A stretch of DNA of 64,000 nt. Origin: Bacteroidia bacterium (GTDB lineage: Bacteria > Bacteroidota > Bacteroidia > NS11-12g > UBA9320). This document shows positions 3,001 to 63,006 of this stretch, one piece after another (positions within the stretch are counted from its first letter, which is position 1; the number at the start of each line of letters is the position of its first letter). The stretch is from NCBI GenBank assembly GCA_044339595.1, contig JBIIVF010000001.1, positions 3,541 to 67,540 of the forward strand, written 5' to 3'. The notes below the pieces were generated by a model, which saw nothing but the letters and a program-made list of their open reading frames with translations, was not told where the DNA came from and did not search any database. A program made the translations under genes and the position numbers.

Positions 3001-3635
3001 TGGGAGATGGAACGGTTTCAAATGATAGCAATGCAATCCACACCTATCCCCGCACCGGACAGGCACGTACCTATTTGGTTTCATTCAAAGCTTCCGCTTC
3101 CAAAGACTGCGCAGACAGTATTACGCTACCTATAAATGTGTTGGTCTCCCCTTCTGCCAATTTTACTTACAGTTCCAATGGCCGAACCGTTTATTTTGCG
3201 CCGGATGTAACACCATCGGGTGCATCCTACCGCTGGACTTTAGGTGATGGAGACAGCAGCAATCTGTCTGCACCATCGCACACCTATAAAGCAGATAGTG
3301 GCACTTATACCGTTTGCCTTTCGGTTACGAATGCCGAAAACTGCACTCAAATGGTGTGTAAGTCGGTGTATTTTAATGTGGGGATAGATGAATTGGAGAA
3401 GGGAATCAGGGTCTATCCAAATCCTGCTGAAAAGACTTTATACATCGAAAGTATTTCTTCATACCCCATATTACAAGTTACCCTTCAGGATTTGCAAGGC
3501 AGAATGCTTTATCAGTCCGATTGCCGAAAGAGCAACTGTGAAATCAATGTTTCGGGATGGAGCAAGGGAATGTATATGTTGTCGGTGCAAACGGAAAGGG
3601 GGATTTGGAAAGGGAAAGTGGAAGTTGGGAGGTGA
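1..3635 (+). CDS. Large secreted PKD-domain protein with a T9SS type-A C-terminal sorting domain. It is 5'-partial, because the reading frame stays open to the window edge.
   Basis: The ORF 87..3635 has a GTG as its first in-frame start, but the frame has no stop back to position 1, so the gene probably begins upstream. Two PKD-like repeats are visible (WRLGDGTVSNDSNAIHTY..., WTLGDGDSSNLSAPSHTYKADSGTYTV). The C-terminal ~80 aa (VYPNPAEKTLYIES...GMYMLSVQTERGIWKGKVEV) match the Por_Secre_tail pattern. Confidence 0.8.
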   Translation, partial: YVVGEVATKDGGSVQLYSISSPDFPNDTVRFDTFQFVQNRHQIRYCLVKSDSSGNITLVKSISQLFLKMYNSSSGYANLMHMVTDNEENLYTIGYLGDTLNIVGKDTLNLQNGRLVVAKFDKHLEPVYTSQFSNDSLYHIFPNYGFAYGYWGGGFRDTRLFFTGQNLYAFFSTKGSLRLAGKNFNFGQNLTQIYCEINPTDGTIKWSDYFYSGNFYPEYNFNISGMTRLNNRLYFSGSFGFSDNKDSIILIKGDTFHKPGGFVIATDTMGTYLSRVGFHNGYTLHNRDIAHDQKNLYICGAFRDSLPWGDTMIPPEFPSGKYPKGRNTVNMELFAASLTPDLQHRWFFRPHVLDVDTFWTANSGQLARIFSANGFLYFGGGISMRTEINQKIYGSNRFYWSNVFLFKMDNIGNILWASDGKADNHAFITEMAVIPDRSIFASGSFKGKIIFGKYHDSARKYISSFHTKITDYSITRGAVSSGPYCAGDSILVPFSIIGTFDSANQFIAELSDEFGNFHGTQKELGRKSSITHDTIVGILPLFQVKSSPHYRIRVRSTEPAVQSYYILDTLRLLIYSKDKADPGPPDTICYRDTLQLNTFGGTKWTWSPAYLMDDSTLRSPRIWPEKDTAYQLIIADSSGCGAPDTAFKSVVVRQRPRLYGDTVVYKCPETYLRVKLYVTHSDSGHTIRWYRNNKLYFTGDSLFYVEDASVTLTAILKDHCSPVTDTLVVRVRYNAPSRLTEINDTAVCYGTSLPLFASANSGFGHVFSWFDAGRSFIATGSPVMRITASDSFMVVLSDACNLKADSAWRHVFINGRIHPDFSDILPADSLFCADFNLTLSPKRAHVSDSIRWTEMPSGITLGSESSLLRNTPGKVKVQVENLCGSTIDSIVIDRKNTPDADIDSLFVPCQGNALTLHAGTFPEDVRIRWSTADTSTLLTLNTDGSYWISASNACGSDTAFFKVQFIPKPKANFNNSDVCEGAVFELVQTGSGGQSFLWRLGDGTVSNDSNAIHTYPRTGQARTYLVSFKASASKDCADSITLPINVLVSPSANFTYSSNGRTVYFAPDVTPSGASYRWTLGDGDSSNLSAPSHTYKADSGTYTVCLSVTNAENCTQMVCKSVYFNVGIDELEKGIRVYPNPAEKTLYIESISSYPILQVTLQDLQGRMLYQSDCRKSNCEINVSGWSKGMYMLSVQTERGIWKGKVEVGR

Positions 3636-12900: not shown

Positions 12901-14518
12901 ATTCTTTAGAATTGTTAGGGTTCCGAAAATAAGTTGGATTGGCTTTAAACCACTTTGTTGGAATGACGGCTTGGTGAGCTTGAATACTTTGAGTAAGGTT
13001 GATCCTAAAGATGGTATTTGGATCAGTATGGATACCTTGGGATATACCAAAATGCCGGCTGGTTCTATTCTAGGCGACACTTTAGATACCCGCAAAACAG
13101 ACCCATTGGGTAAGACCTATTACATGCGTTACTTGCATACAGCGAGCGGATGTCCGGTTTGGAAGGATACTACATTAACCATCAATCCGTTGCCAAAAGT
13201 AACGCCAACACCTTTGCCGCCCTTGGTCTGTGAGAATGAAGCCCCGATTACACTTGGTGCCACACCATCAGGCGGAACCTGGAGTTCTCCTCAAACCGGC
13301 GTAGTGAGTGCAGGCAGGTTCTCACCGGCCACTTCACCGACGGGTGTTTCATTAAAAATGATATACCGATATACCAATCCGGTAACGGGTTGTTCGGGTT
13401 CTGATTCTATTACCTCGATGGTAGAAGCCTTGGCGGAAGTAGAAATACTGACAGCTGATTTGGATACATGCCGCAGTCCGCTGATGAGCAAGTTGGTATC
13501 TGCCCGATTTGCCAATACCCCATCGATTACCTGGATGCCACTGAGTGGTGGAACGGTAGACAATGCCAAAGGCAATCCTGTAACCTTTACCTTCAGCACC
13601 ACCCATGATACCATGCAACAACTGTTGTTGTATGTTATGACCGAAGATGGCAATGCTTGTCCGTTTGTGGATGACTTATTGACCATCAGGGTGCATCCGA
13701 TTCCACATGTAACGGTAACGCCGGATGATCCGAATGGATGTAATCCGCATGCTGTAACCTTTAACACGGTATTCAATAACAAGGTAAATCCTGCCACGGC
13801 TACCTATGCCTGGGATTTTGGAGATGGAGCAACCGGCTTGGTTCAAAACCCGGTGCACAGTTATACCAAAGAAGGGGTGAGCAATGTGAGTTTGAAAGTA
13901 ACGAGCGATCGGGGTTGCGATAGTTCTGTGGGCCTACAGGTGGAAGTATATCCGAATCCGCAAGCCGACTTTACACCCAATCCAAATAACTACACCACCG
14001 CCGCCTTACCGAGGTTCAAATTTATTAACCAATCTATAGTCAGCAATGTATTGGGCAGTTATTTGGATAAACATGAATGGGATTTTGGAGATCCAAACAG
14101 CAATACCGATACCTCAACCGAACATAGTCCAATGTTTTACTACCCGGGCGATACGGCCAATTATCAGGTATGGTTGAAGGTGACCACCAATTACGGTTGT
14201 ACAGACAGCACCATGCGTTTGGTCAGAATCGGGCCTGACATATTGGTATTTATTCCGAATGCATTCACACCGGGCAAGGGAGGTCCTTCAAAAAATGAGG
14301 ACTTCAATGTTGTGGCCAGCGGGTTTAAAACTTACAATATGATGATCTTCAACCGTTGGGGTGAAATCATCTTTGAAAGCAATGATATCAACAAAGGTTG
14401 GGATGGCACATTCAACGGTGCAGATTGTCAACAGGATGTATATGCCTATTCATTGAAAGTAACGAGCCTGAATGATGAAAGCTATGAATACTCCGGAGTT
14501 ATTCACTTGCTGAGATAA
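9926..14518 (+). CDS. Large cell-surface adhesin-like protein of 1530 aa with a gliding-motility-associated C-terminal domain (CHU_C, T9SS type-B CTD)
   Basis: The protein has a signal peptide (MRIIYIILLGLFIPLSQISKA), a Cys-rich N-terminal region and a Pro-rich linker (TPPPPAPTPTPD). Repeated PKD/Ig-like modules (WDFGDGATG..., WDFGDPNSNTD...) follow. The C-terminus (IPNAFTPGKGG...NEDF...FNRWGEIIFES...GWDG...VYAYSLKV) matches the CHU_C pattern. Confidence 0.85.
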   Translation: MRIIYIILLGLFIPLSQISKADHIIGSDLSYRCSGTNDSIWKVTFNFYRDCNGCYVLSQSPKCGTSENCNSSQTAPTAVAIRCMDNNSSVGTLNLVRTSITDITKTCKAVKSKCAQPCNTSYPYGIEKHTFEGTLDLRAAMRNGCCRFELSALLYVRNVAITTGQQQQSFFTFAELNACAKPCNSSPALTNDPVAILCCNQPYVFNNGAVDTANYDSLSYSFSGAFQNRNQLNTYNGGRSPSNPIQAYYPNPLKHPYTNPDANPPIGLYLDAESGDIIFTPTDCSQVAVVVMQIDEWRKDSTGKYKNIGITRRDMQFIVTQCPDNNPPRITNTKYLFNTCEGSQICFNISTDDKVFTPPPPAPTPTPDTVTLTWNRGIPGATFKILNPNDRLKTGEFCWTPPVGTSSTLPYSFTATVTDDACPKNASSTRSFRILVKPKAQDTRKYADLGCGFYSAKATPANNFAGTPSYDWQIRDSTGILIFDKKTAYFKSTGTFISTKDSDVVHFRKGGKYILQHIVNNKPNDCPTTYYDTLIIPDLLEVNLALGKDTFVCIGATLRFSPYLKNEKAPVSYKWATPSVHNSKDTLSYFDISPTTDTAVSLFVQDGSKCTAWDTVRIFLRENPKVKIGPDLRICSYDSALFVPVIDTVKTKINDSTWVNQGNTFRYTWYLNKVPYSSDSILRINQKGSYELHVVDSLGCIGKDTAILYVNDVVTAYAGVDQVKCWNDSLVLVAQGLDTAGNGKSGTYRWWDITSNAPIRINKGTASTLKFPIKVTTDFQLELFVTEDTTTCYHADTINVKVNALPVITKPTDQSVCCDAGDIGLNLLSPTPAPAGGKWYSNQRSDIVVFDKTFLTGKVCDPTNKTTWSLVYEYTDPATTCINRDSIKIVVNPLPRVTLKEGYYCQDLQKTKLIKHVLQPGNPNLGTQEWKCVDCRGYKESDLIKNVGSPLFPDYELNFDETTMNLGSKNEDTLFLEFSFRDGSGCRNKDTAFFRIVRVPKISWIGFKPLCWNDGLVSLNTLSKVDPKDGIWISMDTLGYTKMPAGSILGDTLDTRKTDPLGKTYYMRYLHTASGCPVWKDTTLTINPLPKVTPTPLPPLVCENEAPITLGATPSGGTWSSPQTGVVSAGRFSPATSPTGVSLKMIYRYTNPVTGCSGSDSITSMVEALAEVEILTADLDTCRSPLMSKLVSARFANTPSITWMPLSGGTVDNAKGNPVTFTFSTTHDTMQQLLLYVMTEDGNACPFVDDLLTIRVHPIPHVTVTPDDPNGCNPHAVTFNTVFNNKVNPATATYAWDFGDGATGLVQNPVHSYTKEGVSNVSLKVTSDRGCDSSVGLQVEVYPNPQADFTPNPNNYTTAALPRFKFINQSIVSNVLGSYLDKHEWDFGDPNSNTDTSTEHSPMFYYPGDTANYQVWLKVTTNYGCTDSTMRLVRIGPDILVFIPNAFTPGKGGPSKNEDFNVVASGFKTYNMMIFNRWGEIIFESNDINKGWDGTFNGADCQQDVYAYSLKVTSLNDESYEYSGVIHLLR

Positions 14519-19232: not shown

Positions 19233-22200
19233 CTACCTTATCAGCAACAAAGTGCCTTTTTCTTGTTTCAAAATCGACTTTTTACCCTTGTAATTTAAAA
19301 TATACAGATAAACTCCATTCTGACATGCAGCGCTTTTATAACTGCCATCCCAACCTTCATTTTTATCCATCGAATGAAACACTTTTTCACCCCATCGATT
19401 GTAAATTACCAATTCGTAAAAATTCGTTCCAACCACCAACGGCCTGAAAATTTCATTTTTATTATTTCCATCCGGAGAAAAAGCATTGGGAATGATTGCG
19501 TAAACAGAATCGTTCAAACAAACCGGGAGTGAAAGGCTGTCTGAACACCCTCCGGAATTAAATACGACCAATTTTACGGTATATCTGGATGTATCCGGAG
19601 AATAAATGTGGAATGGGTTGAATGCCGGATCAAAATTTTCTTGTTTACCATCTCCATAAAACCACGTTCCACTCTCGGCACCCTGACTTTGATTGATGAT
19701 TCTTAACTCAGGATTGAAAGGATCCAGACAAAAACCGGTTCTGGGAATGGTTATGAAAGATGCTTTTATTTTTGGATATCCGGGGATGGTGGTGAACGTG
19801 TCGAGAAAACAGCCGGTCACTTGGTTTTTAATGCTTAAGGTGTAACGATTTGAAACGAATGCGGTTAAGCGATAACCTTTAAAAGGTGGAGCTGTGTTCC
19901 AAGTTACCGTGTAAGGATCAGTTGTGCCGGGAGTGACTTCCGCAAACCCCTTTTCCCCATAACATTTAATGGGGCTCGTAAGAATGGCAGCGGTTACAGC
20001 AGGATGCACCACGATGTAAGCAGAATCGGTGGCTTCATTCGAACAACCATCGTTCAACCAAACTTTGTGATAACCGGTAATGGATGGGGTATAAAACAAA
20101 CTATTTCCGGTTTGTCCGGTCGACCAACGGAATGAATAATCCGAAGTGATCCCTCCGCTTCCTTTGGCATCAAGCTGCACTGATCCCCCTTTACAAAGGG
20201 TATCATTGGTGCTCAATGCTTTCACTTTCAATCCAGCCATAACGGTGGCCACGATTGAATCAATTCGGTAACACGTAGACGTGCCATAACGGTAATAAAG
20301 GGTATGGTTTCCCGAACCGGCCATAGAGGGGTTAAACTGATTAATATTGACCCCATTTCCCCAGAAATTTCCTCCTGACGGAGAACCGGTCAAAGAAATG
20401 AGGGTGTCTCTGAAACAATGAACACCCGCCGCACCACTCAACTGCACAATCGGCAAGCCTGTCACGGTAATTCTCACCGAATCTTTACAACCGTTTTTGG
20501 ATAGATATCGGATGATATGAATTCCAACACCGGCTCTTCCCGGGTTAAATACCCCATTCAACGAATCTATGATTCCATTCCCTAAAAATTTGCCCCCGGT
20601 TTCTGCATTCCTGAGCTTAAATGACGGGTCTGCTACGCAAAAACTGGTATCCTTTTGAATATCGCTTTTTGGATATACCAAAAATGTAGTACTATCCAAA
20701 CACCCGTTAAAATCATAGATCAATTTGTGGCTACCGTAACCTGCCAAAGAAGGCGTAAAGTAATACAATGAACTAATCCCTGAACCATTCCAAAGACCTC
20801 CAAATGGTGTTACCTGAACGGAATTGAAATCGAGTAAAATCTGAGGATTCTCAATACAGAAATTTTTATTCTTCACGTAAACGTAGACATTGCGTAAATA
20901 CATGATTTTTTTGGCACTGCAATCACCGTAGATGTATTCAATCGTATCGTTGGTTACCTTACCCACCAAAGCCGGATTATACACTCCCATGGCAGAATCT
21001 GCGACCCCTTTCCCTTTCCAGTATCCGCCGGCCGGAATACCTGGTAACATGGTAAACGAAGGTTGTGATAGACAAATCACTTGATTTCCACGCGCATTGA
21101 TATTTTCAACCGTCATTTTTAAAGTATCACGACATCCGCGCATGGTATAGATGAGGTTTTTGGTGCCAATTCCTGCCGTATTCGTATTAAAAATGCCCAA
21201 ATTGGTATTGATGATTCCTGTGCCACTCCAAGTGCCCCCTTGAGGCGTGAATGACAAGGTGATGTTTCCTGCCGATAAACAAATGGTGTCTGTATCCGGC
21301 ACCTTGATAGAATCAACATTAATTATTTTGTTCGCAGTGCAACCATTCCAGGTATAGGTCACCACATAAATCCCTGACGAATCCGGATTGAAAAGACCTG
21401 CAGCATTGATCTTTGGACCACTCCAGGTACCACCGGCAGGTGAATGGCCTGAAACAAAAAACGGCGACGTTCCCGGGCATGCCGCATTTGGCAATCCTCC
21501 GCTGATGGCTCGAACATCTACAACCACTGTATCAGCACATCCGTTTATCAGGTATAACACGGTATCTCTTCCTGCACCGGCCGAAAAGGGCAAATAATTA
21601 CCGGTGGATGCATTGGTGATCCCTTTACCTTTCCAGGTGCCCCCGACAGGATCTCCACTTAATACAAAGGCACCGCCACTTTGACAAACGGAAGTATCTT
21701 TAGGCGCCAATGGCTTAGGTTTTACTACAATGGTAATGGTATCCGAACCGGGTATCGCTACGCCATCACTGACGGTTAGAATGTAGGTGGTTGTGATCAT
21801 TGGACACACCTTCAAAGGGGGCTTTGCATTGCCCAATCCCTGATTCCATGAATAGGCGTATCTTGTGGAGTCCCCTCCATTCACATCCGCAAAAATATTT
21901 GTGCAACCCCGCTCACAAATGGTGTCTGGTGCCGCTCTTAAGGTTACGTTTATAGGACAATCGGTAATACTAAAAGTTGTATTTGCCTCAAGAATCCAGG
22001 CAGAATCGCATCGATCGTATTTCACACTTCTGAAGCGCAAAGCATAACTACCTCCGCGGTTTAGCCCTGAACTCAGCGTGATTTCAAATGAATCCGTTTC
22101 TCCATTTACACACCCAATGGGAGTTACTTTGCTGATTGCAGGGACGAATGAACCTGACAAAGTGAATGTACTATCATAAATAGAGTCGCATATGAATTTC

Positions 22201-22703
22201 TGGTCCAGTCTAACGCGCAAAACGGAAGTACTGCAACTCACAATCGGTTTTCGAACGAATTTAGGAGAAGGCAGGGGTAAAATCTTTGTTCTCCACTTGG
22301 CCTTCCAGCCAAAACAAGCGACACTTGCATCTGACTGAAAATAAATAGTAAGACAAGAATCAGATGATTTGATCACTCCGGGTGATTTAGTGCCATGATG
22401 TCGGCCTCCTATTTTGGCTGCGAATGTGTCACGTCCATCATAAAATTGCAAAAAATCGACATCTTTTTCCGTACAAAAGCTATCAAATTCTAAGGAAACA
22501 TAATCTCCACCGGGAACACAAACCGAAAATATGAGTCGCTCATTGTGTGCATAATCACCCTTTATAATGCCGAGGTCGCTGTCTGTAAATATTCCCTTAC
22601 AGTCGTAAACCCGGTAGTTTTGCATACTGTAGATATTCTGACCTTGCACATGTGAAAGGAGAATATAGATGAGATGAATACATAAAAAACTAAGCTTACG
22701 CAT
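19233..22703 (-). CDS. Surface protein of 1156 aa with an N-terminal CUB domain and a CHU_C (T9SS type-B) C-terminal domain
   Basis: A signal peptide (MRKLSFLCIHLIYILLSHVQG) is followed by a CUB-like module (GIFTDSDLGIIKGDYAHNERLIFSVCVPGGDYVSLEFDSFCTEKDVDFLQFYDG) and then repeated Ig-like units with GGTW/GG.W motifs. The CHU_C tail is IIPNAFSPDGNNKNEIF...YNRWGEKVFHS...GWDG...GVYLYIL. Confidence 0.8.
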   Translation of the reverse strand: MRKLSFLCIHLIYILLSHVQGQNIYSMQNYRVYDCKGIFTDSDLGIIKGDYAHNERLIFSVCVPGGDYVSLEFDSFCTEKDVDFLQFYDGRDTFAAKIGGRHHGTKSPGVIKSSDSCLTIYFQSDASVACFGWKAKWRTKILPLPSPKFVRKPIVSCSTSVLRVRLDQKFICDSIYDSTFTLSGSFVPAISKVTPIGCVNGETDSFEITLSSGLNRGGSYALRFRSVKYDRCDSAWILEANTTFSITDCPINVTLRAAPDTICERGCTNIFADVNGGDSTRYAYSWNQGLGNAKPPLKVCPMITTTYILTVSDGVAIPGSDTITIVVKPKPLAPKDTSVCQSGGAFVLSGDPVGGTWKGKGITNASTGNYLPFSAGAGRDTVLYLINGCADTVVVDVRAISGGLPNAACPGTSPFFVSGHSPAGGTWSGPKINAAGLFNPDSSGIYVVTYTWNGCTANKIINVDSIKVPDTDTICLSAGNITLSFTPQGGTWSGTGIINTNLGIFNTNTAGIGTKNLIYTMRGCRDTLKMTVENINARGNQVICLSQPSFTMLPGIPAGGYWKGKGVADSAMGVYNPALVGKVTNDTIEYIYGDCSAKKIMYLRNVYVYVKNKNFCIENPQILLDFNSVQVTPFGGLWNGSGISSLYYFTPSLAGYGSHKLIYDFNGCLDSTTFLVYPKSDIQKDTSFCVADPSFKLRNAETGGKFLGNGIIDSLNGVFNPGRAGVGIHIIRYLSKNGCKDSVRITVTGLPIVQLSGAAGVHCFRDTLISLTGSPSGGNFWGNGVNINQFNPSMAGSGNHTLYYRYGTSTCYRIDSIVATVMAGLKVKALSTNDTLCKGGSVQLDAKGSGGITSDYSFRWSTGQTGNSLFYTPSITGYHKVWLNDGCSNEATDSAYIVVHPAVTAAILTSPIKCYGEKGFAEVTPGTTDPYTVTWNTAPPFKGYRLTAFVSNRYTLSIKNQVTGCFLDTFTTIPGYPKIKASFITIPRTGFCLDPFNPELRIINQSQGAESGTWFYGDGKQENFDPAFNPFHIYSPDTSRYTVKLVVFNSGGCSDSLSLPVCLNDSVYAIIPNAFSPDGNNKNEIFRPLVVGTNFYELVIYNRWGEKVFHSMDKNEGWDGSYKSAACQNGVYLYILNYKGKKSILKQEKGTLLLIR

Positions 22704-37667: not shown

Positions 37668-39296
37668 TTATTTGTTCAAGAAAATCTTGTGTGTAGAAAC
37701 ACCGTTTGAAGTGCTGATTTTCACAAGGTACAAACCATTGTTCAATGAAGTCAAATCGGCTACTACTCTGTTAGATCCCATGAAGAACTCTTCGTTGTTC
37801 ACGATTGCGTAAACGGTACGTCCTGACAAGTCAGAAATTTCCATGTTTACCATTTGGTTGTCAGTAAGGTCGAAATCAACCTGAACTGTTCCGTTGGTAG
37901 GGTTAGGATATACGTTCAAGTTCAACACAGCGAAGTTAGAAACTGATCCTGGATTTGGTGGGATAGAATCATACTGAGCATTGTTTGGATCGAAGTTCGT
38001 CCAACCGGCCATCCAATTATCTGTTTCACCAAAAGCACCGATGTAAGACGTTGCAGTAAAGTTGGTGTTATTTAATTTAGCATTGGCAAATGAAGCACCA
38101 CTTAAAGCAGGTGAACCGGCCATTGGTCTGAAATCAGGATTGCTGTAATTGAAAGCGTCTTTCAACATTACCGAAGAATTCAAGGCATATCTGCGGTTGT
38201 TGTTTCCGGTACTGTCATAGAAAGCAGTAAAATCGGCAGTTACTACTCCACCTTGTCCGCTAAAATAAGTCTTATTTCCCGCTACGATATTGTTTTGCAA
38301 GAAACCAACATTGGTTCTGAAGTTGTTGAATGTGGTTGCTCCATCCATTCTGACACCTTCTCTCCAGCCCATAATAACTGAATTGAAGATAGAAATTTCA
38401 TTGTTTCTTCTCAAGTGGGCACCTCTTCCGTGCAAAGAAGCTCTTACGTCTGAAGTATCTTTAAACGCACCGATTACGGTCATATTTGAAAACACCGCTG
38501 CAGTTTTAGGAGTTTCATTGGTTCCACCTGCATCATTGTCCACTTCAAAACCATTTTTGGTAGACACGTCAGCAACATTAGGATCTGCCAATGACACACC
38601 AAATTGTACATTCCCTCTAAATCCCTGATCTACGTCGAAATCGTCATCATTGGTTTTGAAAGCCACCAGGTGCTTGGCGTTTACGGCTCCACCGAACCAT
38701 TCGAAAGCGTCATCATTGTTAAATGAACACTGCACATAGTCAATGGTCGTTCCATTTCCTACAGCACACATAGTCAATGAATTCAATTCGCGATCTTGTT
38801 CAAAAGGAAAACCGGCAAACTCAATGCGACAATATTTCAAAGTACCACTGTTATCTGTATCATCCGATCCACCGTAGTTACCGGGTATTACACCCCCTTC
38901 ATAGGTTGGATTAACTTTGTTGGCTTTGGCATTTCCAAAAATCACAATCCCTCCCCAATCTCCATAGTCTCTTTGACCTTTAGGTTCACCGGAAGTAAAC
39001 ACGATTGGCTTTTCTTTGGTTCCGATAGCAACCAATTTTCCACCTTTGTCAACCAAAAGACAAGTTGCATTGGATTGATCCGGAGCTTTTCCTCCTTTTA
39101 CGACAGTTCCAGGCTCAACAGTCAGGGTTACACCGTTCTGAATGCGCACAATACCGCTTAATACATAAATTTTGTCGGCAGTCCAGGTTGCGCTGGCTGT
39201 GATGTTGGAAGTCACATTAACCACCTGTTTTGCTGTTTGAGATTGAACGAACTGAGCACTCAGAATCGTTAGCATCATTAGGAATAATTTTTTCAT
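37668..39296 (-). CDS. Secreted parallel beta-helix-like protein with a T9SS type-A C-terminal domain
   Basis: A signal peptide (MKKLFLMMLTILSAQFVQSQ) is followed by repetitive Gly/Asn-rich beta-strand modules. The C-terminus (LNLNVYPNPTNGTVQVDFDL...GLYLVKISTSNGVSTHKIFLNK) matches the T9SS C-terminal domain. Confidence 0.75.
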   Translation of the reverse strand: MKKLFLMMLTILSAQFVQSQTAKQVVNVTSNITASATWTADKIYVLSGIVRIQNGVTLTVEPGTVVKGGKAPDQSNATCLLVDKGGKLVAIGTKEKPIVFTSGEPKGQRDYGDWGGIVIFGNAKANKVNPTYEGGVIPGNYGGSDDTDNSGTLKYCRIEFAGFPFEQDRELNSLTMCAVGNGTTIDYVQCSFNNDDAFEWFGGAVNAKHLVAFKTNDDDFDVDQGFRGNVQFGVSLADPNVADVSTKNGFEVDNDAGGTNETPKTAAVFSNMTVIGAFKDTSDVRASLHGRGAHLRRNNEISIFNSVIMGWREGVRMDGATTFNNFRTNVGFLQNNIVAGNKTYFSGQGGVVTADFTAFYDSTGNNNRRYALNSSVMLKDAFNYSNPDFRPMAGSPALSGASFANAKLNNTNFTATSYIGAFGETDNWMAGWTNFDPNNAQYDSIPPNPGSVSNFAVLNLNVYPNPTNGTVQVDFDLTDNQMVNMEISDLSGRTVYAIVNNEEFFMGSNRVVADLTSLNNGLYLVKISTSNGVSTHKIFLNK

Positions 39297-42687: not shown

Positions 42688-42769
42688 GCCCAAGTGGTGA
42701 AATTGGTAGACACGCTGTCTTCAGGCGGCAGTTCCGCAAGGTGTGCAGGTTCGAGTCCTGTCTTGGGCA
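42688..42769 (+). tRNA. tRNA-Leu (anticodon CAG), type II with a long variable arm
   Basis: A hand fold gives an acceptor stem GCCCAAG/CTTGGGC with discriminator A, and a D-arm GTG-AAATTGGTAGA-CAC. The anticodon stem is CTGTC/GGCAG with loop TTCAGGC. A 13-nt variable arm is followed by a T-arm GCAGG-TTCGAGT-CCTGT. No CCA is encoded. Confidence 0.75.
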
Positions 42770-42810
42770 CATCAGTTAAATTACGCAAAGCTCACTTTTT
42801 GCGTGTTGAA

Positions 42811-46344: not shown

Positions 46345-46471
46345 GGTAAAAATTTGCGCAAAAATAGCAATCCTCTTAATAACCGGCTTTCTCTTTAAAA
46401 TATATCTCAGCCCGCCATTTCTGCTAAATCTCTGAAATGGCTTAAGTTTGTGCGTTAGAATTAAACCAAAC

Positions 46472-49400
46472 ATGAAAGATCTATTTTCCGTTTTCCCTTT
46501 TCAGGATAAAAGTGATTGGACCGAGCTCGTTAAAAAGGATTTGAAGGAAGGTGAATTTCAGCATAAATTCATTCGACAAACTGAAGGTTTTTTGACGGAA
46601 GCACTGAATGTTGAAAACGAAATAGACGGGCAGACTCGAAATTTAAAAACTTATGCCGGATGGCAATCTCCCTCTGCGTTAACCATTACTGCAACCAACT
46701 ATGTTGATTGCCTAAAAATATTACCTCATTTGTTTCAATACGGTGCCGATGGATGCTTTATTGAAATTGCAGACACACAACTTTCAGAAGTGCAGAAACT
46801 CGATTTACTTCGACATGCAACGCCGAATTTCCCGATTTATATCATCGATGAACAGGACCGTTTGGAAAGTTGGTATTATCAATGGGTTGCTGCCTATACT
46901 GAGAGAGGCTTAACTATTTCGGATATCCGAGGTGGATTGCTTTCAAAGGAAGTAAATCAGGATTTAAGTTCTTTTCAAGCCATGATCGATCTGTGCAAAG
47001 GAAGTCCTGAACTCAAATTGATTCGCATCTTTTACCAAAAAAAGGAAGGTTCAACCCCCATGCTTCTGCAATTGAAGGAAATTTTGGAGCATTGGAAGTC
47101 AATGGTCCAACAAATAAAATTGGATTTACAAGATACATTGTCCTCAAAAACGCTGATCATAATGGATTGTAGTCAGCAGTATTTTGAACAAATCGCTCAA
47201 TTTCGGGCTTTGCGTATCCTCTTAGAATCTGTACAACCTCAGATTCCGCAACTCGTTGGATGGTGTTATACCCCTACTGACAATCCAAAGGATTTTGACC
47301 GCTTGGTTCGCGATACCCTAAAAACCATGAGTGGTGTTAAAGGGGGCGCTGACCTGATGGTTACTCATCCTGTTTTTGCCGATGCCGATTGGTGCCGATG
47401 GGCTACAAACATCCATCATTTGCTTCGCGAAGAAGGAAAATTCGAGAAGTATGCCGATATAGTTGCAGGTAGTTATACCGTAGAAGCCTTGACTCTCAGA
47501 ATGGTAGAATCAGTATTAGGACATAAGGTATCTTCAACAACAAACGCCGATAAGAATGAAACACTGAACAACTCAATTGCGACTTGGCCTTGTCCTGAAG
47601 GATTTGACATTCCAAATTTATTAGAAAATAAAAAAGAAGCGCATGTAAAGTACTTGCCCGGCATTTCTCCTTATTTAAGAGGCCCCTATGCATCGATGTA
47701 TGTAATTCGGCCATGGACCATTCGTCAGTACGCAGGATTTTCTACTGCAGAAGCATCCAACGCATTTTACAGAAGGAATCTGGCTGGAGGCCAAAAAGGT
47801 TTATCGGTAGCCTTTGATCTAGCCACCCATCGGGGATATGACTCTGACCATCCGAGGGTTAGTGGAGATGTAGGGATGGCCGGCGTAGCCATTGACAGCA
47901 TTGAAGACATGAAGCTTTTGTTCGATGAAATTCCTTTGAATGAAATGTCGGTTTCGATGACCATGAATGGCGCTGTAATTCCCATTTTAGCCTTTTATAT
48001 TGCCGCTGCACAGGAACAAGGAGTTGCATTGAAGGATTTGAGCGGCACTATACAAAATGATATTCTCAAAGAATTCATGGTGAGAAACACGTACATCTAT
48101 CCACCTTCACCTAGCATGCGCATCGTCAGTGATATTTTTAGCTTCACTTCGAAGCAGATGCCAAAGTTCAATTCAATCAGCATCAGTGGATATCACATGC
48201 ATGAGGCCGGTGCGAGTGCAGACATCGAATTGGCTTATACCCTGGCAGATGGCATGGAATACGTGAGGACCGGCATGGCCGCCGGGCTCGATATAGATCA
48301 ATTTGCACCGCGCCTTTCATTTTTTTGGGCAATCGGGATGAACCACGCCATGGAAATTGCCAAAATGCGCGCAGGAAGAGTATTATGGTCGTATATCATG
48401 CGAAAAATGGGTGCTAAGGATGATAAATCTCTTGCCTTAAGAACCCATTGTCAGACCAGCGGATGGAGTCTAACCGAACAAGATCCATTTAACAACGTAA
48501 TCAGAACTACCCTTGAAGCCATGGCGTCTGTCTTAGGGGGAACTCAAAGTTTACACACCAATGCTTTGGATGAAGCCATTGCTTTGCCTACCGATTTTTC
48601 TGCGGCGATAGCCAGAAATACCCAAATTATTATTCAAAAAGAAACCGGCATTACCCAATACATCGACCCTATGGGAGGAAGCCGATATATTGAATATTTG
48701 ACGGCTCAATTAATGGAACGTGCCTGGAATTTGATAGAAGAAATCGAATCCTTGGGTGGTATGACCAAAGCGATTGAAATGGGCGTTCCTAAAAGAAAAA
48801 TTGAAGAAGCTTCGGCCAGAAAGCAAGCCCGAATAGACAACGGGAATGAAGTGATTGTCGGGGTCAATAAATACCGGACCGACAGCAATACTGTTTTGAA
48901 TATTCTCGAAATAGACAATACCGAAGTGCGGAATGCTCAAATTCTGAAACTCAAGCGAATCAAAGAGAGCCGCAATCAGATAAAGGTAAATTCATTGCTT
49001 GCTCAACTCGAAGCCGCTGCCCAAAATACGGACCAAAATCTATTGGAAATTGCCATAGAAGCAGCCAAAGAAAGGGCCACTTTGGGCGAAATTTCGATGG
49101 CACTCGAAAATGTATTTGGTCGATATAAAGCCAATACACAATCTGTTTCGGGTGTATATTTGTCTGAAATGAAGCAGGATCCCTTTTTCGGAGAAGCAAG
49201 AAAGCGAACCGCACTCTTTGAAACGCGTCAGGGCAGAAGACCCAGAATTCTGGTGGCGAAAATGGGACAGGATGGTCATGACCGAGGCGCACGTATCATT
49301 GCCACAAGTTTTGCCGATATTGGGTTTGATGTAGACATTGGACCATTATTCCAAACCCCGGAAGAAGTAGCCCGACAAGCCATAGAGAACGACGTACATG

Positions 49401-49630
49401 TGCTTGGAATTAGCAGTCTTGCCGGAGGGCACCGCACCCTGGTACCAGAAGTTATCGATGCATTAAGGACACAAGGAAGAAGTGATATTCTTGTTATTGC
49501 AGGAGGTGTAATTCCACAACAAGACTATGATTCCTTAAAGAAATCAGGTGTAGCCGCCATTTTTGGACCTGGAACTGTGATCAGCAAAGCCGCCATAGAA
49601 ATCATGGACATGCTTCCCGACCGGGCTTAG
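46472..49630 (+). CDS. Methylmalonyl-CoA mutase, a long form of 1053 aa. It comprises an N-terminal extension of about 340 aa, the substrate-binding barrel and a C-terminal B12-binding domain.
   Basis: Residues from about 360 to the end align with the E. coli Sbm/MutB pattern ([50 protein letters not shown]...). The C-terminus carries the DxHxxG B12 motif ([16 protein letters not shown]). The first 340 aa have only a mutase-like N-terminus ([14 protein letters not shown]...TEGF) and no B12 domain. Confidence 0.8.
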
Positions 49631-57694: not shown

Positions 57695-58101
57695 ACCTGA
57701 GTACAAACCTAAGATTTTTTTGACTTGCATGGACATGTTGATTCTAAATTGAAAAAATAACTATGAAACCAGCCCAAAAGGTCACCGCCTCCTAACCTGC
57801 TAAACTGAGAATTAATGGGCTTCGGATCGTTAAATAATCAAAAAAATCGCCCCTCCTTTCAAGCAAATTATAGGCTAAAATTTCCCAAATACAGAAAACC
57901 ATCCAAACTCAAGACTTTGCTCTATTTTTTATACCCATCATTTACGAAAATAAATGAAAGCAAACTCGGCTAAAAATGTTGATTATAAGAAAAAAAAAAG
58001 CATATTGCGTGAATACACAAGCAAATCCATTATGGACATGACATTGCGATTGAATCCTACTTATTGTTCTTGGAACCTGAATTACCCAAACTGATCTTTC
58101 G

Positions 58102-58791
58102 TTGATTACGGAAATAAAGATAAAGGCATTCAGGGCCATTGATGATGAGGCCAGTTGTATTAAGTTTCTCGAGGGACACCGAGAGGTACTTATTGAACAT
58201 GGTTTTAGCCACTTCAAGACCAATACTCAGGCTTGGTTTTACAACCCTTTGGTTTACGTATTGGTAGCTGAGGATATTCATACCGGAGAATATATAGGCG
58301 GGGTTCGTCTCGAAATTGCTGATGATAGTTACGAACTGCCATGTGAGATGGCTTTAAAGCAAATGGATCCTAAAATTTCTGATTACATCAAGTTGCACCA
58401 AAAAGATGTAATGGCTGAAGGTTGTGGTTTATGGAATTCTAAATCCGTTGCCGGAAAGAGAATTAGTGTTATGCTTGTAAAGGCTGCCATCGTTGTTGCT
58501 GTGCAATTAAAAATCACGAAACTAATCGCGTTTTTGGCGCGATATACCAGTTACATTATTTTAAGAATGGGCTTTAAATCTGAAACCGGTTTAGGTAAAA
58601 ATGGGGATTTTAATTATCCTACCGATCAGTTTATTGCAAGAGTCTATTTGAATGATGATTTGATTAACCTAAAGGATGCGAGTGAAGAAGACCGCAAGAG
58701 AATCATGTTTCTGCAAGCCAATCCCATTATTACACTCGACGAACTTGAGACAAATGAGCCGGTAAGGGTTCATTATGAATTAAAGATTTAA
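58102..58791 (+). CDS. GNAT-fold acyl-CoA N-acyltransferase-like protein of about 229 aa, apparently TTG-initiated
   Basis: A beta2-beta3-like segment (LVYVLVAEDIHTGEYIGGVRLEI) is present. A motif-A-like block (VAGKRISVMLVKAAI) is followed by a motif-B-like block (ARYTSYIILRMGF). No in-frame ATG lies upstream of the domain. The first start codon after the in-frame stop at 58078 is the TTG at 58102. Confidence 0.5.
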   Translation: MITEIKIKAFRAIDDEASCIKFLEGHREVLIEHGFSHFKTNTQAWFYNPLVYVLVAEDIHTGEYIGGVRLEIADDSYELPCEMALKQMDPKISDYIKLHQKDVMAEGCGLWNSKSVAGKRISVMLVKAAIVVAVQLKITKLIAFLARYTSYIILRMGFKSETGLGKNGDFNYPTDQFIARVYLNDDLINLKDASEEDRKRIMFLQANPIITLDELETNEPVRVHYELKI

Positions 58792-58795
58792 TCCA

Positions 58796-60805
58796 GTGTT
58801 TAGAATTCCGGCATTTATTTTCTGTATTTTATCTTTTTTTACATCTGAAGCGATCAATGCGGATAGTCAATTCGTTCAATTAACACCCAATCAAGAAATT
58901 ACGGCAGAAGTCTCAGACGGATTATCTGCCAACGATTTTTATCTTTTTCACGACAATCAATTTCCATCGCAGAGTTTGAAATTGGTAACGCCCAGGTTGG
59001 ATACCGTTCGATTATATCAAATCAATAATGGCCAATATCAGTTGATTTATTTTAGAGAAGGTTTGAAACAAAAAAACAAAAACTTCATTCACTACATTGT
59101 TCCACTTCTCAATGGCGTAAATCCTGATTCCTTCAAATTAGAAATCAAATCTAGTTTTAAACTCAGGTTCAAAATGGTTTTAGAAGAGACTGAGGTCTCG
59201 CATAAAAAAGAACAGATTTTTGAATTGTGGTTCAGTTTGTTTACCGGCATTATGCTGGTGATGATTATTTATAACTTATTTCTTTTCTTCTCTGTAAGAG
59301 ACAATATCTATCTGCTTTATGTATTGTATATCCTCACCGTTTTGTTCACTCAGCTTTCCATTTTTGGGGTTGCGGCAAAATATCTTTGGGCCGGCAATGA
59401 GTGGCTCAATTATCAGTCAGTAAATATATTTACCTCTTTGGTGGGCATTGCCTCCCTCGAATTCTTCAAGAAATTTAACCAAATCAAAGACTTTTTTCCA
59501 AAAGCAGACAAAGTATTAAACATCCACCATGTGGTTTACGTATTGGCGCTGATTTACTCTTTTTCTGACAAAAGCAATGTACCAACCGCTTATGGTTTGA
59601 TTTCGGTGAATGCCACCGTTCTTTCTATTGTTGCCATCATTCTGGGTTTTAAACTCATGATAAACGGTTTTAGACCGGCGAAATTCTTTTTGATTGCCTG
59701 GATTCTTTTTATTGTCGGCATCGTGTTGTACATCATGAAAGATTTTGGGTTTTTACCACTCACCTTTTTAACCAGATATATGATGCCCATTGGCTCTGCC
59801 ATGGAAACCGTGATCCTTTCTTTGGCGTTGGCAGATCGAATCAACATATTAAAGAAAGAGAAGGAGACTTCACAAGCACAGGCGCTGAATGAGATGAAGA
59901 AAAATCAGCAGTTGATTAGAGAACAGAATATTGTACTTGAACAAAAAGTAGTTGAAAGAACTGCTGAACTTGAACAGACATTGATGGACCTCAAGCAAAC
60001 GCAAAGTCAATTGGTTGCTGCAGAAAAACTAGCCTCACTCGGTCAATTGACCGCGGGTATTGCGCACGAAATCAACAACCCCATTAACTTTGTTTCATCC
60101 AATATCGAACCGCTTAAAAACGACATTAAAGACATCATTGAATTATTGAATATTTATCAAGAAAAAGCCCGTTCTTTAAACCCTGCTGAATTCAAGTCGG
60201 CCAAAGAATTTGAAGATGAAATTGACTTAGAATATACCATTGAAGAAATCGATCGGCTGATGAAAGGCATACGAGAAGGGGCAGACCGGACCACAGAAAT
60301 CGTAAGCAGTTTGAGGACTTTCTCAAGAACCGATGAAATTGCCCTTCAAACAGTCGATATACACACCATCATAGATTCAACCCTCACCATCTTAAAAAAC
60401 AATCTCGGCCGCATTCAAGTTATTCGGCAATATGGTGAAATTTTACCGATTGAAGCCTATGCGGGTAAATTGAATCAAGCCATTATGAATGTCGTAAACA
60501 ATGCAATGCAGGCCATTTTCGATTGCTACGAAGACGAAAGTAAAGGAATCATCTATATAAAGACTGAGCAAATCGACTCGATGATTAAAATTTCAATTTC
60601 GGACAACGGTTCAGGGATTGATCCCTTGTATGTCGACAAAATTTTTGAACCCTTTTTTACGACCAAGGAGGTTGGAAAAGGAACCGGATTAGGACTTTCG
60701 ATTACATATGGAATCATTGATCAACACAGTGGAAAGATTTATGCAGAGGAACATGGTAATACCGGCACTAAAATCTCGATAGAAATACCTATACATCAAT
60801 CATGA
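58796..60805 (+). CDS. Sensor histidine kinase of the 7TMR-DISM type. It has a periplasmic 7TMR-DISMED2-like domain, a 7-TM region, HisKA and HATPase_c.
   Basis: A signal-anchor is followed by an extracellular domain of about 115 aa. Seven TM helices span residues 140-345, followed by a coiled coil. The H-box (AEKLASLGQLTAGIAHEINNP) and the N, G1 and G2 boxes (GTGLGLSI) are present. Confidence 0.8.
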   Translation: MFRIPAFIFCILSFFTSEAINADSQFVQLTPNQEITAEVSDGLSANDFYLFHDNQFPSQSLKLVTPRLDTVRLYQINNGQYQLIYFREGLKQKNKNFIHYIVPLLNGVNPDSFKLEIKSSFKLRFKMVLEETEVSHKKEQIFELWFSLFTGIMLVMIIYNLFLFFSVRDNIYLLYVLYILTVLFTQLSIFGVAAKYLWAGNEWLNYQSVNIFTSLVGIASLEFFKKFNQIKDFFPKADKVLNIHHVVYVLALIYSFSDKSNVPTAYGLISVNATVLSIVAIILGFKLMINGFRPAKFFLIAWILFIVGIVLYIMKDFGFLPLTFLTRYMMPIGSAMETVILSLALADRINILKKEKETSQAQALNEMKKNQQLIREQNIVLEQKVVERTAELEQTLMDLKQTQSQLVAAEKLASLGQLTAGIAHEINNPINFVSSNIEPLKNDIKDIIELLNIYQEKARSLNPAEFKSAKEFEDEIDLEYTIEEIDRLMKGIREGADRTTEIVSSLRTFSRTDEIALQTVDIHTIIDSTLTILKNNLGRIQVIRQYGEILPIEAYAGKLNQAIMNVVNNAMQAIFDCYEDESKGIIYIKTEQIDSMIKISISDNGSGIDPLYVDKIFEPFFTTKEVGKGTGLGLSITYGIIDQHSGKIYAEEHGNTGTKISIEIPIHQS

Positions 60806-61905
60806 CGGCGATAAAACCAAAAATACTGATTGTAGATGATGAAGAGCAGAATTTAGTTTCATTCAAAGCATCTTTCCGAAGGATTTACCATGTTTATACT
60901 GCTCAATCAGCAGACGAGGGCATGCAGGTTCTGCGAACAGAGAATGGCATCTGTGTAGTAGTTTCAGACCATCGAATGCCGGGAAAAACAGGCGTAAAAT
61001 TTTTAGAAGATGTAAAGCAGGAGTTCCACAATATTATCCGCATAGTATTGACCGCCTATGCCGATCCAGAAGCCACTCGTGATGCCATTAATAAAGCAGG
61101 GGTCTACCGATATCTGAACAAACCCTGGGTAGAACAGGATTTACTCTCTACCCTGAATTCTGCGGTGGAGCTTTACAATACCCGCGAAGAACTCATTCAT
61201 AAACAAGAAGAACTTGAGCAAGCCTATGCAGAATTAAGCAAGTTCGTTTACAGTGCTTCTCATGATTTAAGGGCGCCTTTGGTTTCCGTTATTGGATTAA
61301 TTAATGTGGCCAAAATGGATCCTGAGTTTCCCAAAGACAGCATGTATCTCCCCTTGATCGAAAAAAGTGTGCTAAAACTTGAAGTATTTGTAAGAAATAT
61401 CATTGAATACTACCAGAACAAAGAAAGAAAGAAAAGCATGGTTCCGGTGAATATTGCCTTCATGGTGGAAGAAATTGTACACTCACTCGAATATTTCCAA
61501 AATGCCTCGGAAATCCATTATATAAAACAATTTGATCTCGAAATAGTCACCGTTACGGATGAATTCCGCTTAAAGGTGATCCTTAATAATCTTATTTCCA
61601 ACGCGATTAAATATCAACGAGAGGATGAGGCGAATAAACAAATTCGAATTTCAGCGAAGTCAAATTCCGAACAAATCATCCTTGAAGTTTCTGACAATGG
61701 CATCGGTATAAAATCTTCCTCTAAGGAACATATTTTTGATATGTTCTACCGGGCAACCAATCAAGAATCAGGCTCGGGAATAGGATTATATATTTTAAAG
61801 GACGCGGTAAATAAATTAGGAGGGCAGATTTCCTTTGAATCAGAAACCGGCGTTGGGACCACTTTCAAAGTGATGATACCCAATAATCCCACAACGAATT
61901 TATGA
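60802..61905 (+). CDS. Hybrid two-component protein with an N-terminal REC receiver fused to HisKA and HATPase_c
   Basis: The REC domain (KILIVDDEEQNL...VVSDHRMPGKTG...NKP) is followed by an H-box (SASHDLRAPL) and an ATPase domain (ISNAIKY...DNGIGI...GSGIGLYI). There is a 4-nt ATGA overlap with the upstream kinase. Confidence 0.8.
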   Translation: MTAIKPKILIVDDEEQNLVSFKASFRRIYHVYTAQSADEGMQVLRTENGICVVVSDHRMPGKTGVKFLEDVKQEFHNIIRIVLTAYADPEATRDAINKAGVYRYLNKPWVEQDLLSTLNSAVELYNTREELIHKQEELEQAYAELSKFVYSASHDLRAPLVSVIGLINVAKMDPEFPKDSMYLPLIEKSVLKLEVFVRNIIEYYQNKERKKSMVPVNIAFMVEEIVHSLEYFQNASEIHYIKQFDLEIVTVTDEFRLKVILNNLISNAIKYQREDEANKQIRISAKSNSEQIILEVSDNGIGIKSSSKEHIFDMFYRATNQESGSGIGLYILKDAVNKLGGQISFESETGVGTTFKVMIPNNPTTNL

Positions 61906-61911
61906 TCTTAA

Positions 61912-63006
61912 CTATTTAAGAACATCCACGTGTTCTTCTCTCCTCTTCCTGATCCTTCTCAACCAAATGGGCAAAACGATGCTGCCGATGATGATATAAG
62001 GATAATAACTCAAAAATCTCCACAAGAAGGCCACCCCACCTGCAATTTCATGACTTGGCAAAAAGTTTCCGAGAAATGCAGGAAAAATCAATTCAGCCAC
62101 GCCGCTACCTCCGGGCGTTACCGCCACCAAAAGAATCACCCACATGATGAGTTGTCTTCCATAAATCATTAAATGGTCGTCTATGGGTCCAAATGCCAGC
62201 ATCAAAAAATTAACCATCAAATATCTGGCAGTCCAGCTCAGAAATGTGGCGCCATAGGCACTCAGCCAAAACTTCCATCCTTTCCCTCTAAACTCGGTAG
62301 CTGCAATGAGCAGATCTTTGGCCCATTCCCTGCTGCTCCACCGCCAACGTCGCAAAACAGGAAATGAAAATAACTTGAGAATAAATCGAGTGGTTATGCT
62401 TGGTTTTAACAATAAACAAAACAACAACAACACCGTCCATGCTGCCAATATTCCGTATCCTGTCCAAAAGAATAATTTAATATTGCCGGTGCTGAATAAG
62501 CCTGTTGCATTTTCTGTGAGTTCAATGGCAGGAAAAGCATTTGAAAAGCCTATTACAAAAAACACAATCGGTACCATGGTGATGAAAAATATTTCATCCA
62601 ATAAGGACGTAATAAGGACAATGGCGGTGGTTCTGCCTGTTTTTATTTTCTCCTGAGCCATGATGACCAATGCCACAGCAGTTCCACCCACGGCACTTGG
62701 TGAAATGGCAGAAGAAAATTCCCATAACATGGAGATTTCAAAACACTGACGCCAACTTAATTCCTTTTCAGACAGTACTCTCAATCTCAGCATGTACCCG
62801 ACATCCCTCAGGACCATCATTAAAATAGAAACGCCTATCCAAATAGATGAGTAAACGGTCCAATTGATGCGTCGATAGGCGTCTGCGTCCTTTTGGTCAA
62901 AATTCCAAAAGATGATAAAGACAGTTACAATCAAACCGATGATAACCGGCAGAATAACCCTTCGCCCGCGGAAATATTTTGTAATGTCGGATATCCTGTT
63001 TTTCAC
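61912..63006 (-). CDS. Integral membrane protein of the MprF/lysylphosphatidylglycerol-synthase TM-region (flippase-like, UPF0104) family
   Basis: The product is 364 aa with about 8 TM helices. The N-terminus (MKNRISDITKYFRGRRVILPVIIGLIV) and overall topology fit this family. No catalytic domain is present. Confidence 0.6.
   Translation of the reverse strand: MKNRISDITKYFRGRRVILPVIIGLIVTVFIIFWNFDQKDADAYRRINWTVYSSIWIGVSILMMVLRDVGYMLRLRVLSEKELSWRQCFEISMLWEFSSAISPSAVGGTAVALVIMAQEKIKTGRTTAIVLITSLLDEIFFITMVPIVFFVIGFSNAFPAIELTENATGLFSTGNIKLFFWTGYGILAAWTVLLLFCLLLKPSITTRFILKLFSFPVLRRWRWSSREWAKDLLIAATEFRGKGWKFWLSAYGATFLSWTARYLMVNFLMLAFGPIDDHLMIYGRQLIMWVILLVAVTPGGSGVAELIFPAFLGNFLPSHEIAGGVAFLWRFLSYYPYIIIGSIVLPIWLRRIRKRREEHVDVLK

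Follow-up and report, generated by a model that had tools for sequence, protein, structure and literature searches.

Many bacteria, among them Mycobacterium tuberculosis, produce N-acyl amino acids and acyl-oxazolones (PMC12856293; bioRxiv 10.1101/2020.06.11.147165). In one such pathway, Rv1356c and Rv1355c are TrzA and TrzS: TrzA N-acylates tryptophan from acyl-CoA, TrzS (Rv1355c, with rv1356c upstream of its gene) is a fusion of a ThiF-type cyclase and a flavin oxidase, and together they yield N-acyl tryptazolones (PMC12856293). TyzABC in M. tuberculosis and OxzAB in Pseudoalteromonas rubra carry out the same chemistry on tyrosine and phenylalanine (PMC10404671; bioRxiv 10.1101/2020.06.11.147165), and the solved structures reported as nearest to TyzA are FeeM and an acyl-homoserine lactone (AHL) synthase. 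The papers examined on the Oxz, Tyz and Trz pathways (2020 to 2025) describe the function of acyl-oxazolones as unknown, name no receptor, and speculate about a role as signals (PMC12856293; bioRxiv 10.1101/2020.06.11.147165). Here, we examine a three-gene operon at positions 58102-61905 of a 64-kb stretch of DNA, referred to below as the window, from Bacteroidia bacterium (GenBank assembly GCA_044339595.1, contig JBIIVF010000001.1, positions 3,541 to 67,540 of the forward strand). Its open reading frames (ORFs) encode a predicted N-acyltransferase (ORF1), a 7TMR-DISM sensor histidine kinase (ORF2), and a soluble receiver domain fused to a histidine kinase core (ORF3). Judging from sequence comparisons, we give a probability of about 50% to the proposal that this operon specifies a self-made N-acyl amino acid signal together with its receptor kinase, in a manner resembling phcBSRQ.

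Like Ralstonia phcBSRQ (PMC8578825), the locus combines a synthase, a membrane sensor kinase, and a soluble protein in which a receiver is joined to a kinase and a DNA-binding domain is lacking; its relatives add a receiver-only protein. However, PhcB is a methyltransferase that makes methyl 3-hydroxymyristate, and the window has no PhcQ-like receiver-only gene; the likeness is one of gene logic. PhcS is not described as a 7TMR-DISM protein in the literature that we examined. The oxazolone pathways differ from the locus in another respect: ORF1 shares one operon with a seven-transmembrane (7TM) kinase cascade, whereas the known pathways have no dedicated receptor. Both the kind of enzyme (a synthase of the FeeM/TyzA/TrzA/OxzA type) and the kind of system (a synthase with a receptor kinase) are already known. 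A module joining such a synthase to a 7TMR-DISM kinase is not described in the literature searched, including papers that mention 7TMR-DISM.

Fold and kinship of the predicted synthase

A sequence-only reading of this DNA had assigned GNAT-fold motifs to the 229-amino-acid (aa) product of ORF1 (58102-58791, + strand; TTG start). Profile searches gave this no support. ORF1 had no match in Pfam, NCBIfam or PDB sequences, the best acetyltransferase hit (E=0.096) falling far below the cutoff, and a profile of 130 ORF1-family members searched against PDB reached only E=0.05, to GNATs. At the level of fold the assignment stood: by structure and by profile, ORF1 falls within the acyltransferase fold, as that reading had supposed. 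The AlphaFold (AF2) model, for which a 13-sequence alignment was the input, has a predicted local distance difference test score (pLDDT) of 88.9 and a predicted template modeling score of 0.89, and follows the GNAT element order b1-a1-a2-b2-b3-b4-a3-b5-a4-b6. The structures nearest to the model are FeeM, which makes N-acyl amino acids and which Foldseek ranks first (E=4e-8), and LuxI-type synthases, both of them candidates that the sequence-only reading had named. Among the 130 family members, 40 give weak matches to Acetyltransf_1 (best 2e-6) and 7 give weak matches to the FeeM model; ORF1 itself does not match the Pfam Autoind_synth model of LuxI-type AHL synthases. FeeM (PDB 2G0B), which was obtained from soil metagenomes and synthesizes N-acyl tyrosine, differs from ORF1 in that the two share only about 10% sequence identity and ORF1 does not match the FeeM Pfam model. 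The acyl donor of FeeM is an acyl-acyl carrier protein (acyl-ACP).

Glu106 (nt 58417-58419), which lies on strand beta4, is the one residue that never varies among the 130 family members. FeeM Glu94 and LasI Glu101 are listed among active-site residues in a review (PMC9654057), and the motif, as opposed to a superposition, suggests that Glu106 may be their equivalent. Other positions conserved in at least 90% of members are His26, Trp45, Arg69, Leu79-Pro80, Cys108, Trp111, Tyr172-Pro173, and Tyr225. Where GNAT proteins have the Q/R-x-x-G-x-G/A loop that binds pyrophosphate, between b4 and a3, the consensus of the family reads GxG, and the clade that contains the window has S-V-A-G-K-R, with the second Gly replaced. 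Compared with a relative that is 88% identical in amino acid sequence, ORF1 has pN=0.087 against pS=0.80, with synonymous sites saturated, which argues that it is a real gene under strong purifying selection; among the three proteins, conservation in that comparison is highest for ORF1.

The family to which ORF1 belongs is large. A word-indexed search of 5.8 billion proteins found only 13 relatives. With a profile as the query, 1.84 billion cluster representatives gave at least 579 clusters at 50% identity, of which 215 scored below 1e-30. All named members are labeled "hypothetical protein", and all that carry an organism name are from Bacteroidota. Within the 150 cluster representatives listed, ORF1-like domains also form the C-terminal part of longer predicted proteins (P0147, P0142, P0051, and P0017) whose N-terminal parts are ThiF, FAD-linked oxidase, TIR or leucine-rich repeats; these are either genuine fusions or gene-calling artefacts.

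To relate this family to the oxazolone pathways, we drew comparator loci of the Rv1355c family from actinobacterial plasmid records. The top match to the ORF1-family hidden Markov model (HMM) among the ORFs of each locus was the gene directly upstream of the Rv1355c-family gene in Nocardia farcinica, and its divergent neighbor on two Rhodococcus plasmids (28.4, 22.4 and 19.7 bits). In hhalign, the ORF1 family aligned with these Rv1355c neighbors at 96.5% (E=8.9e-10, 173 columns), with GGxR69, the beta4 residue E106, W111, and Y172-P173 in register between the two profiles. On the strength of this alignment, we consider ORF1 a distant homolog of presumed TrzA-type N-acyl amino acid synthases. 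A search for direct actinobacterial family members, made from a member with higher GC content, gave named relatives only in Flavobacteriales and Mucilaginibacter.

Several of the actinobacterial loci have additional features. A Kitasatospora sp. plasmid (NZ_CP108248.1; locus L096, 4263-6113) encodes a "ThiF family adenylyltransferase" of 616 aa; its ThiF part and the ThiF half of the Bacteroidota proteins described below share 48% identity. An N-terminal extension of about 245 aa in this protein gives a faint match to the ORF1-family HMM (E=0.06-0.12); a ketoacyl-ACP synthase III gene follows, and a LuxR-type regulator is encoded nearby. On the two Rhodococcus plasmids (L095 and L100), the pair formed by the TrzA-like gene and the Rv1355c-family gene adjoins a gene for a GGDEF-domain protein. 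This echoes the M. tuberculosis trzAS locus, which adjoins cyclic di-GMP genes and whose product has a role reported as unknown (PMC12856293).

Kinases, neighborhood and exchange of sensor modules

The three plus-strand genes are tightly linked, and the gaps of 4 and -4 nt noted earlier proved exact. ORF2 (58796-60805, + strand; 669 aa, GTG start) begins after a spacing of 4 nt (58792-58795), and the start of ORF3 overlaps the stop of ORF2 by 4 nt (ATGA). ORF2 is, as the sequence-only reading had it, a sensor kinase with a 7TMR-DISM input. It has a full-length match to 7TMR-DISM_7TM (E=1e-46, aa 143-348), followed by HisKA (aa 415-443) and HATPase_c (E=4.5e-20), and its catalytic motifs are intact (His424, G1 box at 603, G2 box at 629). 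The AF2 model of the whole protein (pLDDT 79) consists of a beta-sandwich, seven membrane helices, and a long helix leading into the dimerization and histidine phosphotransfer (DHp) domain. A signal-peptide-like N-terminus precedes the sandwich, which is predicted to be periplasmic and to have nine strands (aa 23-131; 58862-59188, + strand; pLDDT about 80-87). The seven-helix transmembrane bundle (aa 132-350; 59189-59845, + strand) comes next, and the remainder is formed by the long signaling helix, the DHp domain with His424 (nt 60065-60067), and the catalytic ATP-binding domain (aa 351-666; 59846-60793, + strand). The periplasmic domain is shorter than a standard 7TMR-DISMED2 domain, and no match to PF07696 (7TMR-DISMED2) or to another DISMED Pfam model was found in ORF2; related kinases that have tailoring genes beside them do match DISMED2, for example at 3.7e-29.

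The kinases RetS and LadS of Pseudomonas have the same 7TMR-DISM_7TM module joined to a histidine kinase core as ORF2. As hybrid kinases, they have receiver domains at the C-terminus besides a recognizable DISMED2 domain, and they are not known to be encoded beside a signal synthase. The periplasmic domain of ORF2, in contrast, is shorter than theirs and is not recognized by the DISMED2 model.

ORF3 (60802-61905, + strand; 367 aa, ATG start) has the domains claimed for it previously: a receiver fused directly to a second kinase core, without a DNA-binding output. The receiver (Response_reg, E=6e-17, aa 8-118) contains Asp56 (nt 60967-60969), the core contains the HisKA residue His154 (nt 61261-61263) and an HATPase_c domain (E=4e-25, aa 253-361), and Asp56, His154, and the N, G1 and G2 boxes are all intact. 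Pfam and NCBIfam profile searches found no DNA-binding or histidine phosphotransfer (HPt) domain in ORF2 or ORF3. The term phosphorelay used for these genes therefore does not apply in its classical His-Asp-His-Asp sense; because an HPt domain is missing, we describe them as a cascade from a kinase to a receiver-kinase.

A scan of one genome per GTDB species, with the 13-member ORF1-family alignment as the query, yielded 80 loci (numbered with the prefix L) from Sphingobacterium, Pedobacter, Taibaiella, Arcticibacter, Parapedobacter, Daejeonella, and several Bacteroidota metagenome-assembled genomes, 77 of which had enough flanking sequence for neighbors to be counted. In every one of these 77 species genomes, a 7TMR-DISM kinase is encoded directly downstream of the ORF1 homolog on the same strand. 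An ORF3-like receiver-kinase is present in 73 of the 77 and a small stand-alone receiver in 74. Kinase relatives in the clade of the window are at least 52% identical to ORF2 over the sensor part, and the six more distant kinases sampled (34-47% sensor identity) all have an HMM-confirmed ORF1 homolog immediately upstream (6/6); two further Flavobacteriales contexts show the same arrangement of synthase and kinase. Orthologs of the kinase thus retain the upstream gene, in 77 of 77 genomes and with all six distant kinases, and an arrangement that had been called unusual is widespread in Bacteroidota.

The genes that follow the kinase are more variable. In four Taibaiella loci (L031, L033, L036, and L078), the synthase, a methyltransferase, the 7TMR-DISM kinase, and a receiver of about 154 aa lie on the same strand without a receiver-kinase, which suggests that an ORF3-type protein is dispensable in Taibaiella. 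At distant loci, the gene after the kinase encodes a receiver-HisKA_3 kinase, a receiver-PAS-kinase or a 228-aa receiver (L088:6740-8107, L090:7028-8551, L091:9937-11475, and L089:7042-7728), and the synthase-kinase pair is constant.

The terminal output of the system, which had been left open, has a likely candidate in relatives. This is the small receiver-only protein of about 154 aa, which shares about 41% identity with the ORF3 receiver and linker as far as the residues just ahead of the phospho-acceptor His, and which has a conserved tail, ...QLEF(L/M)LRQ(K/R)L(L/I)S. Examples are encoded at L001:6968-7432 (- strand), L060:12890-13357 (- strand), and L031:11876-12340 (+ strand). Given its resemblance to an ORF3 cut before the phospho-acceptor His, this protein might act as a partner of the ORF3 DHp helix or as a competitor for it. 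In three relatives that are 57-72% identical (L001, L005, and L006), its gene lies divergently between pdxA and ORF1, and L001 encodes an extra receiver of 126 aa downstream. No stand-alone receiver was found by tblastn in the 64-kb window, nor a receiver remnant at 57737-58101, and a stand-alone receiver is also absent from the 88%-identical relative L093. The output partner in these two genomes must therefore be encoded elsewhere or have been lost.

Most of the relatives encode an additional enzyme beside or between the synthase and the kinase. A class I S-adenosylmethionine-dependent methyltransferase occupies this place in 44 loci and a ThiF-like gene in 38, and no locus has both. The full-length ThiF-like proteins (770-781 aa) score 748-822 bits against the NCBIfam "Rv1355c family protein" equivalog, for which the cutoff is 476, and also match the model of Acg-type flavin mononucleotide oxidoreductases; the shorter ones match the N-terminal ThiF half. 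The fused oxidase domain is present in at least 12 of the 38 ThiF-type loci. ORF1 and its homologs are thus like TrzA, TyzA, and OxzA in their fold, in having the same nearest structures as TyzA, in a profile that aligns with the acyltransferases neighboring Rv1355c-family proteins, and in standing beside a ThiF-like gene in 38 related loci. They differ in that a ThiF or oxidase partner is missing from the window, a methyltransferase takes its place in about half of the related loci, and the Bacteroidota family is too divergent for the Pfam and NCBIfam models. A tblastn search found no methyltransferase, ThiF-like or nitroreductase-like gene in the 64-kb window. The window forms a clade with L001-L003, L005, L006, and L093 that lacks a tailoring gene and has its own class of sensor, with a shortened periplasmic domain to which the DISMED2 model does not respond.

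The sensor module of the kinase, meaning the periplasmic domain together with the seven-helix bundle, is exchanged in relatives between cassettes of different type. We compared methyltransferase-type with ThiF-type loci in Sphingobacteriaceae. Between the types, mean identity is 72% for the ORF1 homolog (maximum 90%), 68% for the kinase core (maximum 90%), 64% for the receiver-kinase (maximum 93%), and 76% for the small receiver (maximum 94%). For the sensor module it is 31%, with a maximum of 37%, compared to about 59% within one type. Across 85 loci in four classes (none, methyltransferase, ThiF, and ThiF-oxidase), sensor identity is about 49-55% within a class and 30-34% between classes, reaching at most 44%.

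A pair of Sphingobacterium loci shows the mosaic. Locus L014 (S. paucimobilis, methyltransferase type) and locus L009 (S. tabacisoli, ThiF type) are 97.2% identical in DNA over the 8.7 kb upstream and 86.8% identical downstream. Between these flanks, L014:8676-10726 and L009:8676-11099 have no detectable DNA similarity over about 2.0 and 2.4 kb, respectively. The replaced block starts approximately 35 codons short of the synthase stop, takes in the whole tailoring gene, and covers kinase residues 1 to about 385, where the membrane module ends; beyond that point (residue 386 onward) the two kinases are 88-100% identical. This is a clean allelic replacement, exchanged as one block. The position of the breakpoint at a domain boundary, together with the lack of mixed combinations in the 85 loci, suggests that sensor and tailoring enzyme are matched in function, and this co-variation is the main evidence pointing to recognition of the product by the kinase.

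A block of similar composition is known from the staphylococcal agr and streptococcal com systems, in which ribosomal peptides are the signals. There, the hypervariable segment starts late in the signal-processing gene, includes the gene that determines the signal, and extends over the sensor half of the receptor kinase. In L014 and L009, the variable block likewise comprises the end of the synthase, a presumed signal-determining gene, and the sensor half, with a conserved core. The variable element differs, however, in being a tailoring enzyme for what is presumably a lipid-like small molecule.

Proposed signaling system and alternatives

Beyond fold, homology and gene linkage, the mechanism proposed here is extrapolated from gene content. 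In the first step, ORF1 would act as a cytoplasmic GNAT-fold N-acyltransferase of the FeeM/TyzA/TrzA kind, transferring an acyl group from acyl-CoA or acyl-ACP to an amino acid or similar amine and giving an amphiphilic N-acyl amino acid; predicted fold and homology support this assignment well. The product would then leave the cytoplasm, be bound by the sensor module of ORF2 in the membrane or periplasm, and change the autophosphorylation of His424, a step to which comparative genomics points. Domain content and order, and the overlap of the two genes, suggest that ORF2 would pass phosphate to Asp56 of ORF3, whose receiver would switch its own kinase core (His154). The core would in turn act on a further receiver, which in most relatives would be the receiver-only protein of about 154 aa. 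In other genera, where the tailoring gene between synthase and kinase encodes a methyltransferase or a ThiF/TrzS-like cyclase (with or without an oxidase domain), a methyl ester or an oxazolone-type derivative would serve as the signal. The clade of the window would signal with a plain N-acyl compound, and the window would thus have a minimal form of the system.

Strict linkage of synthase and kinase would fit equally well if the kinases were cluster-situated regulators. ORF2 would then sense an unrelated cue, such as a carbohydrate, a stress or an antibiotic, the cascade would control the production or activity of ORF1, and the ORF1 product would be a surfactant, an antimicrobial or a stress lipid and not the ligand. 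Biosynthetic clusters often carry their own regulators, and the periplasmic domains of 7TMR-DISM proteins have classically been proposed to bind carbohydrates. Induction of oxazolone production by sublethal antibiotics in Proteobacteria (bioRxiv 10.1101/2020.06.11.147165) also agrees with regulation by an outside cue. However, the module has no DNA-binding output anywhere, and a sensor of an unrelated cue would have no reason to match the tailoring class while the rest of the cascade is 90% identical, except that physical adjacency could still yield this pattern. We therefore view an unrelated cue as unlikely, though deserving of serious attention. Another possibility shares the first two steps of the signaling proposal and differs only in the diffusibility of the ligand: ORF1 would make a membrane aminolipid whose level in the cell's own membrane is monitored by the seven-helix bundle of ORF2, with feedback on the envelope. 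N-acyl amino acid lipids are reported as membrane components in Bacteroidota (PMC11631085), the predicted sensor of ORF2 is mostly 7TM bundle, and a flippase-like LPG_synthase_TM gene lies immediately downstream, in convergent orientation, in the clade of the window. That neighbor is a matter of local synteny, though, found in 4 of 90 loci by sequence search and also in L089 and L093 by Pfam annotation, and cassette swaps between near-identical genomes seem more typical of diversifying specificity in communication than of a housekeeping lipid sensor. Lipid homeostasis thus appears distinctly doubtful.

The sequence-only reading had offered two roles for the acyltransferase, production or modification of the sensed signal, or acylation-based control of the pathway. 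Of these, we favor signal production, given the tailoring enzymes for small molecules that are encoded in relatives and the co-variation of the sensor module with these enzymes. A protein acyltransferase modifying a lysine or the N-terminus of ORF2, ORF3 or the receiver would be compatible with a GNAT fold, and response regulators of other bacteria are known to be acetylated on lysine. But the closest structures are small-molecule N-acyl synthases and not protein acetyltransferases, ORF1 is homologous to presumed TrzA-type amino acid acyltransferases, and its family is partnered (in P0147 apparently fused) with small-molecule tailoring enzymes, either ThiF-oxidase or methyltransferase, all of which makes acylation control very improbable.

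Some observations weigh against a self-made signal as well. The Nocardia and Rhodococcus comparators are presumed to be TrzA-like by synteny only. The window has neither a tailoring gene nor a stand-alone receiver in its 64 kb, and this variant could work differently from its relatives. The periplasmic domain of ORF2 does not match 7TMR-DISMED2. In addition, the tailoring gene adjoins the 5' half of the kinase gene, which encodes the sensor, and their joint replacement could be plain linkage.

We know of no small-molecule communication system that is well established in Bacteroidota. More speculatively, and with less than even confidence, we suggest that cell-to-cell signaling of this kind may extend across the phylum, with N-acyl amino acids and their methyl-ester or oxazolone derivatives as autoinducers, 7TMR-DISM kinases as receptors, and specificity altered by swapping cassettes of tailoring enzyme and sensor. 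If so, a small-molecule communication system would be added to Bacteroidota, a class of ligand would be assigned to 7TMR-DISM receptors, and acyl-oxazolone lipids would gain a first physiological role and a first receptor. The module offers a candidate for such a receptor, because hundreds of Bacteroidota lineages have in it a homolog of the first enzyme of the pathway joined with a sensor kinase of its own. Matching pairs of sensor and product can be predicted from the natural cassette swaps, and the culturable carriers Sphingobacterium, Pedobacter, and Taibaiella make the question testable. The at least 579 clusters of the ORF1 family could receive a provisional functional annotation.

Flanking genes and other features of the window

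The genes that flank the module are housekeeping genes. Upstream, on the minus strand, are pdxA and genes of the YceD family, ribosomal protein L32, the FA_synthesis family, and the ketoacyl-ACP synthase III type, the Pfam families of the last four being read from the syntenic relative L001. The region 5' of ORF1 (57737-58101, + strand) contains no ORF and presumably bears the promoter. Its plus strand has no Bacteroidetes -7 motif (TAnnTTTG), and the position of the ORF1 promoter was accordingly not located; a sigma-70 promoter scan gave scores no better than those of shuffled sequence. Downstream, the LPG_synthase_TM flippase-like gene (61912-63006, - strand) is convergent with ORF3 and lies 6 nt past its stop. 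We rejected this gene as a member of the module, from which it probably stands apart given that its synteny is limited to the clade of the window and one distant locus.

The window is part of a Bacteroidota chromosome that carries cargo genes of type IX secretion. Large proteins with predicted secretion are encoded at four places (87-3635, 9926-14518, 19233-22703, and 37668-39296); they have C-terminal type IX sorting domains (Por_Secre_tail or CHU_C), and some of them contain PKD domains and one a CUB domain. ARAGORN and Rfam detect a single RNA gene in the window, tRNA-Leu(CAG), at 42688-42770 (+ strand). A single 1060-aa ORF at 46448-49630 (+ strand) contains two methylmalonyl-CoA mutase stretches and a B12-binding domain, and may be a fusion of both mutase subunits.

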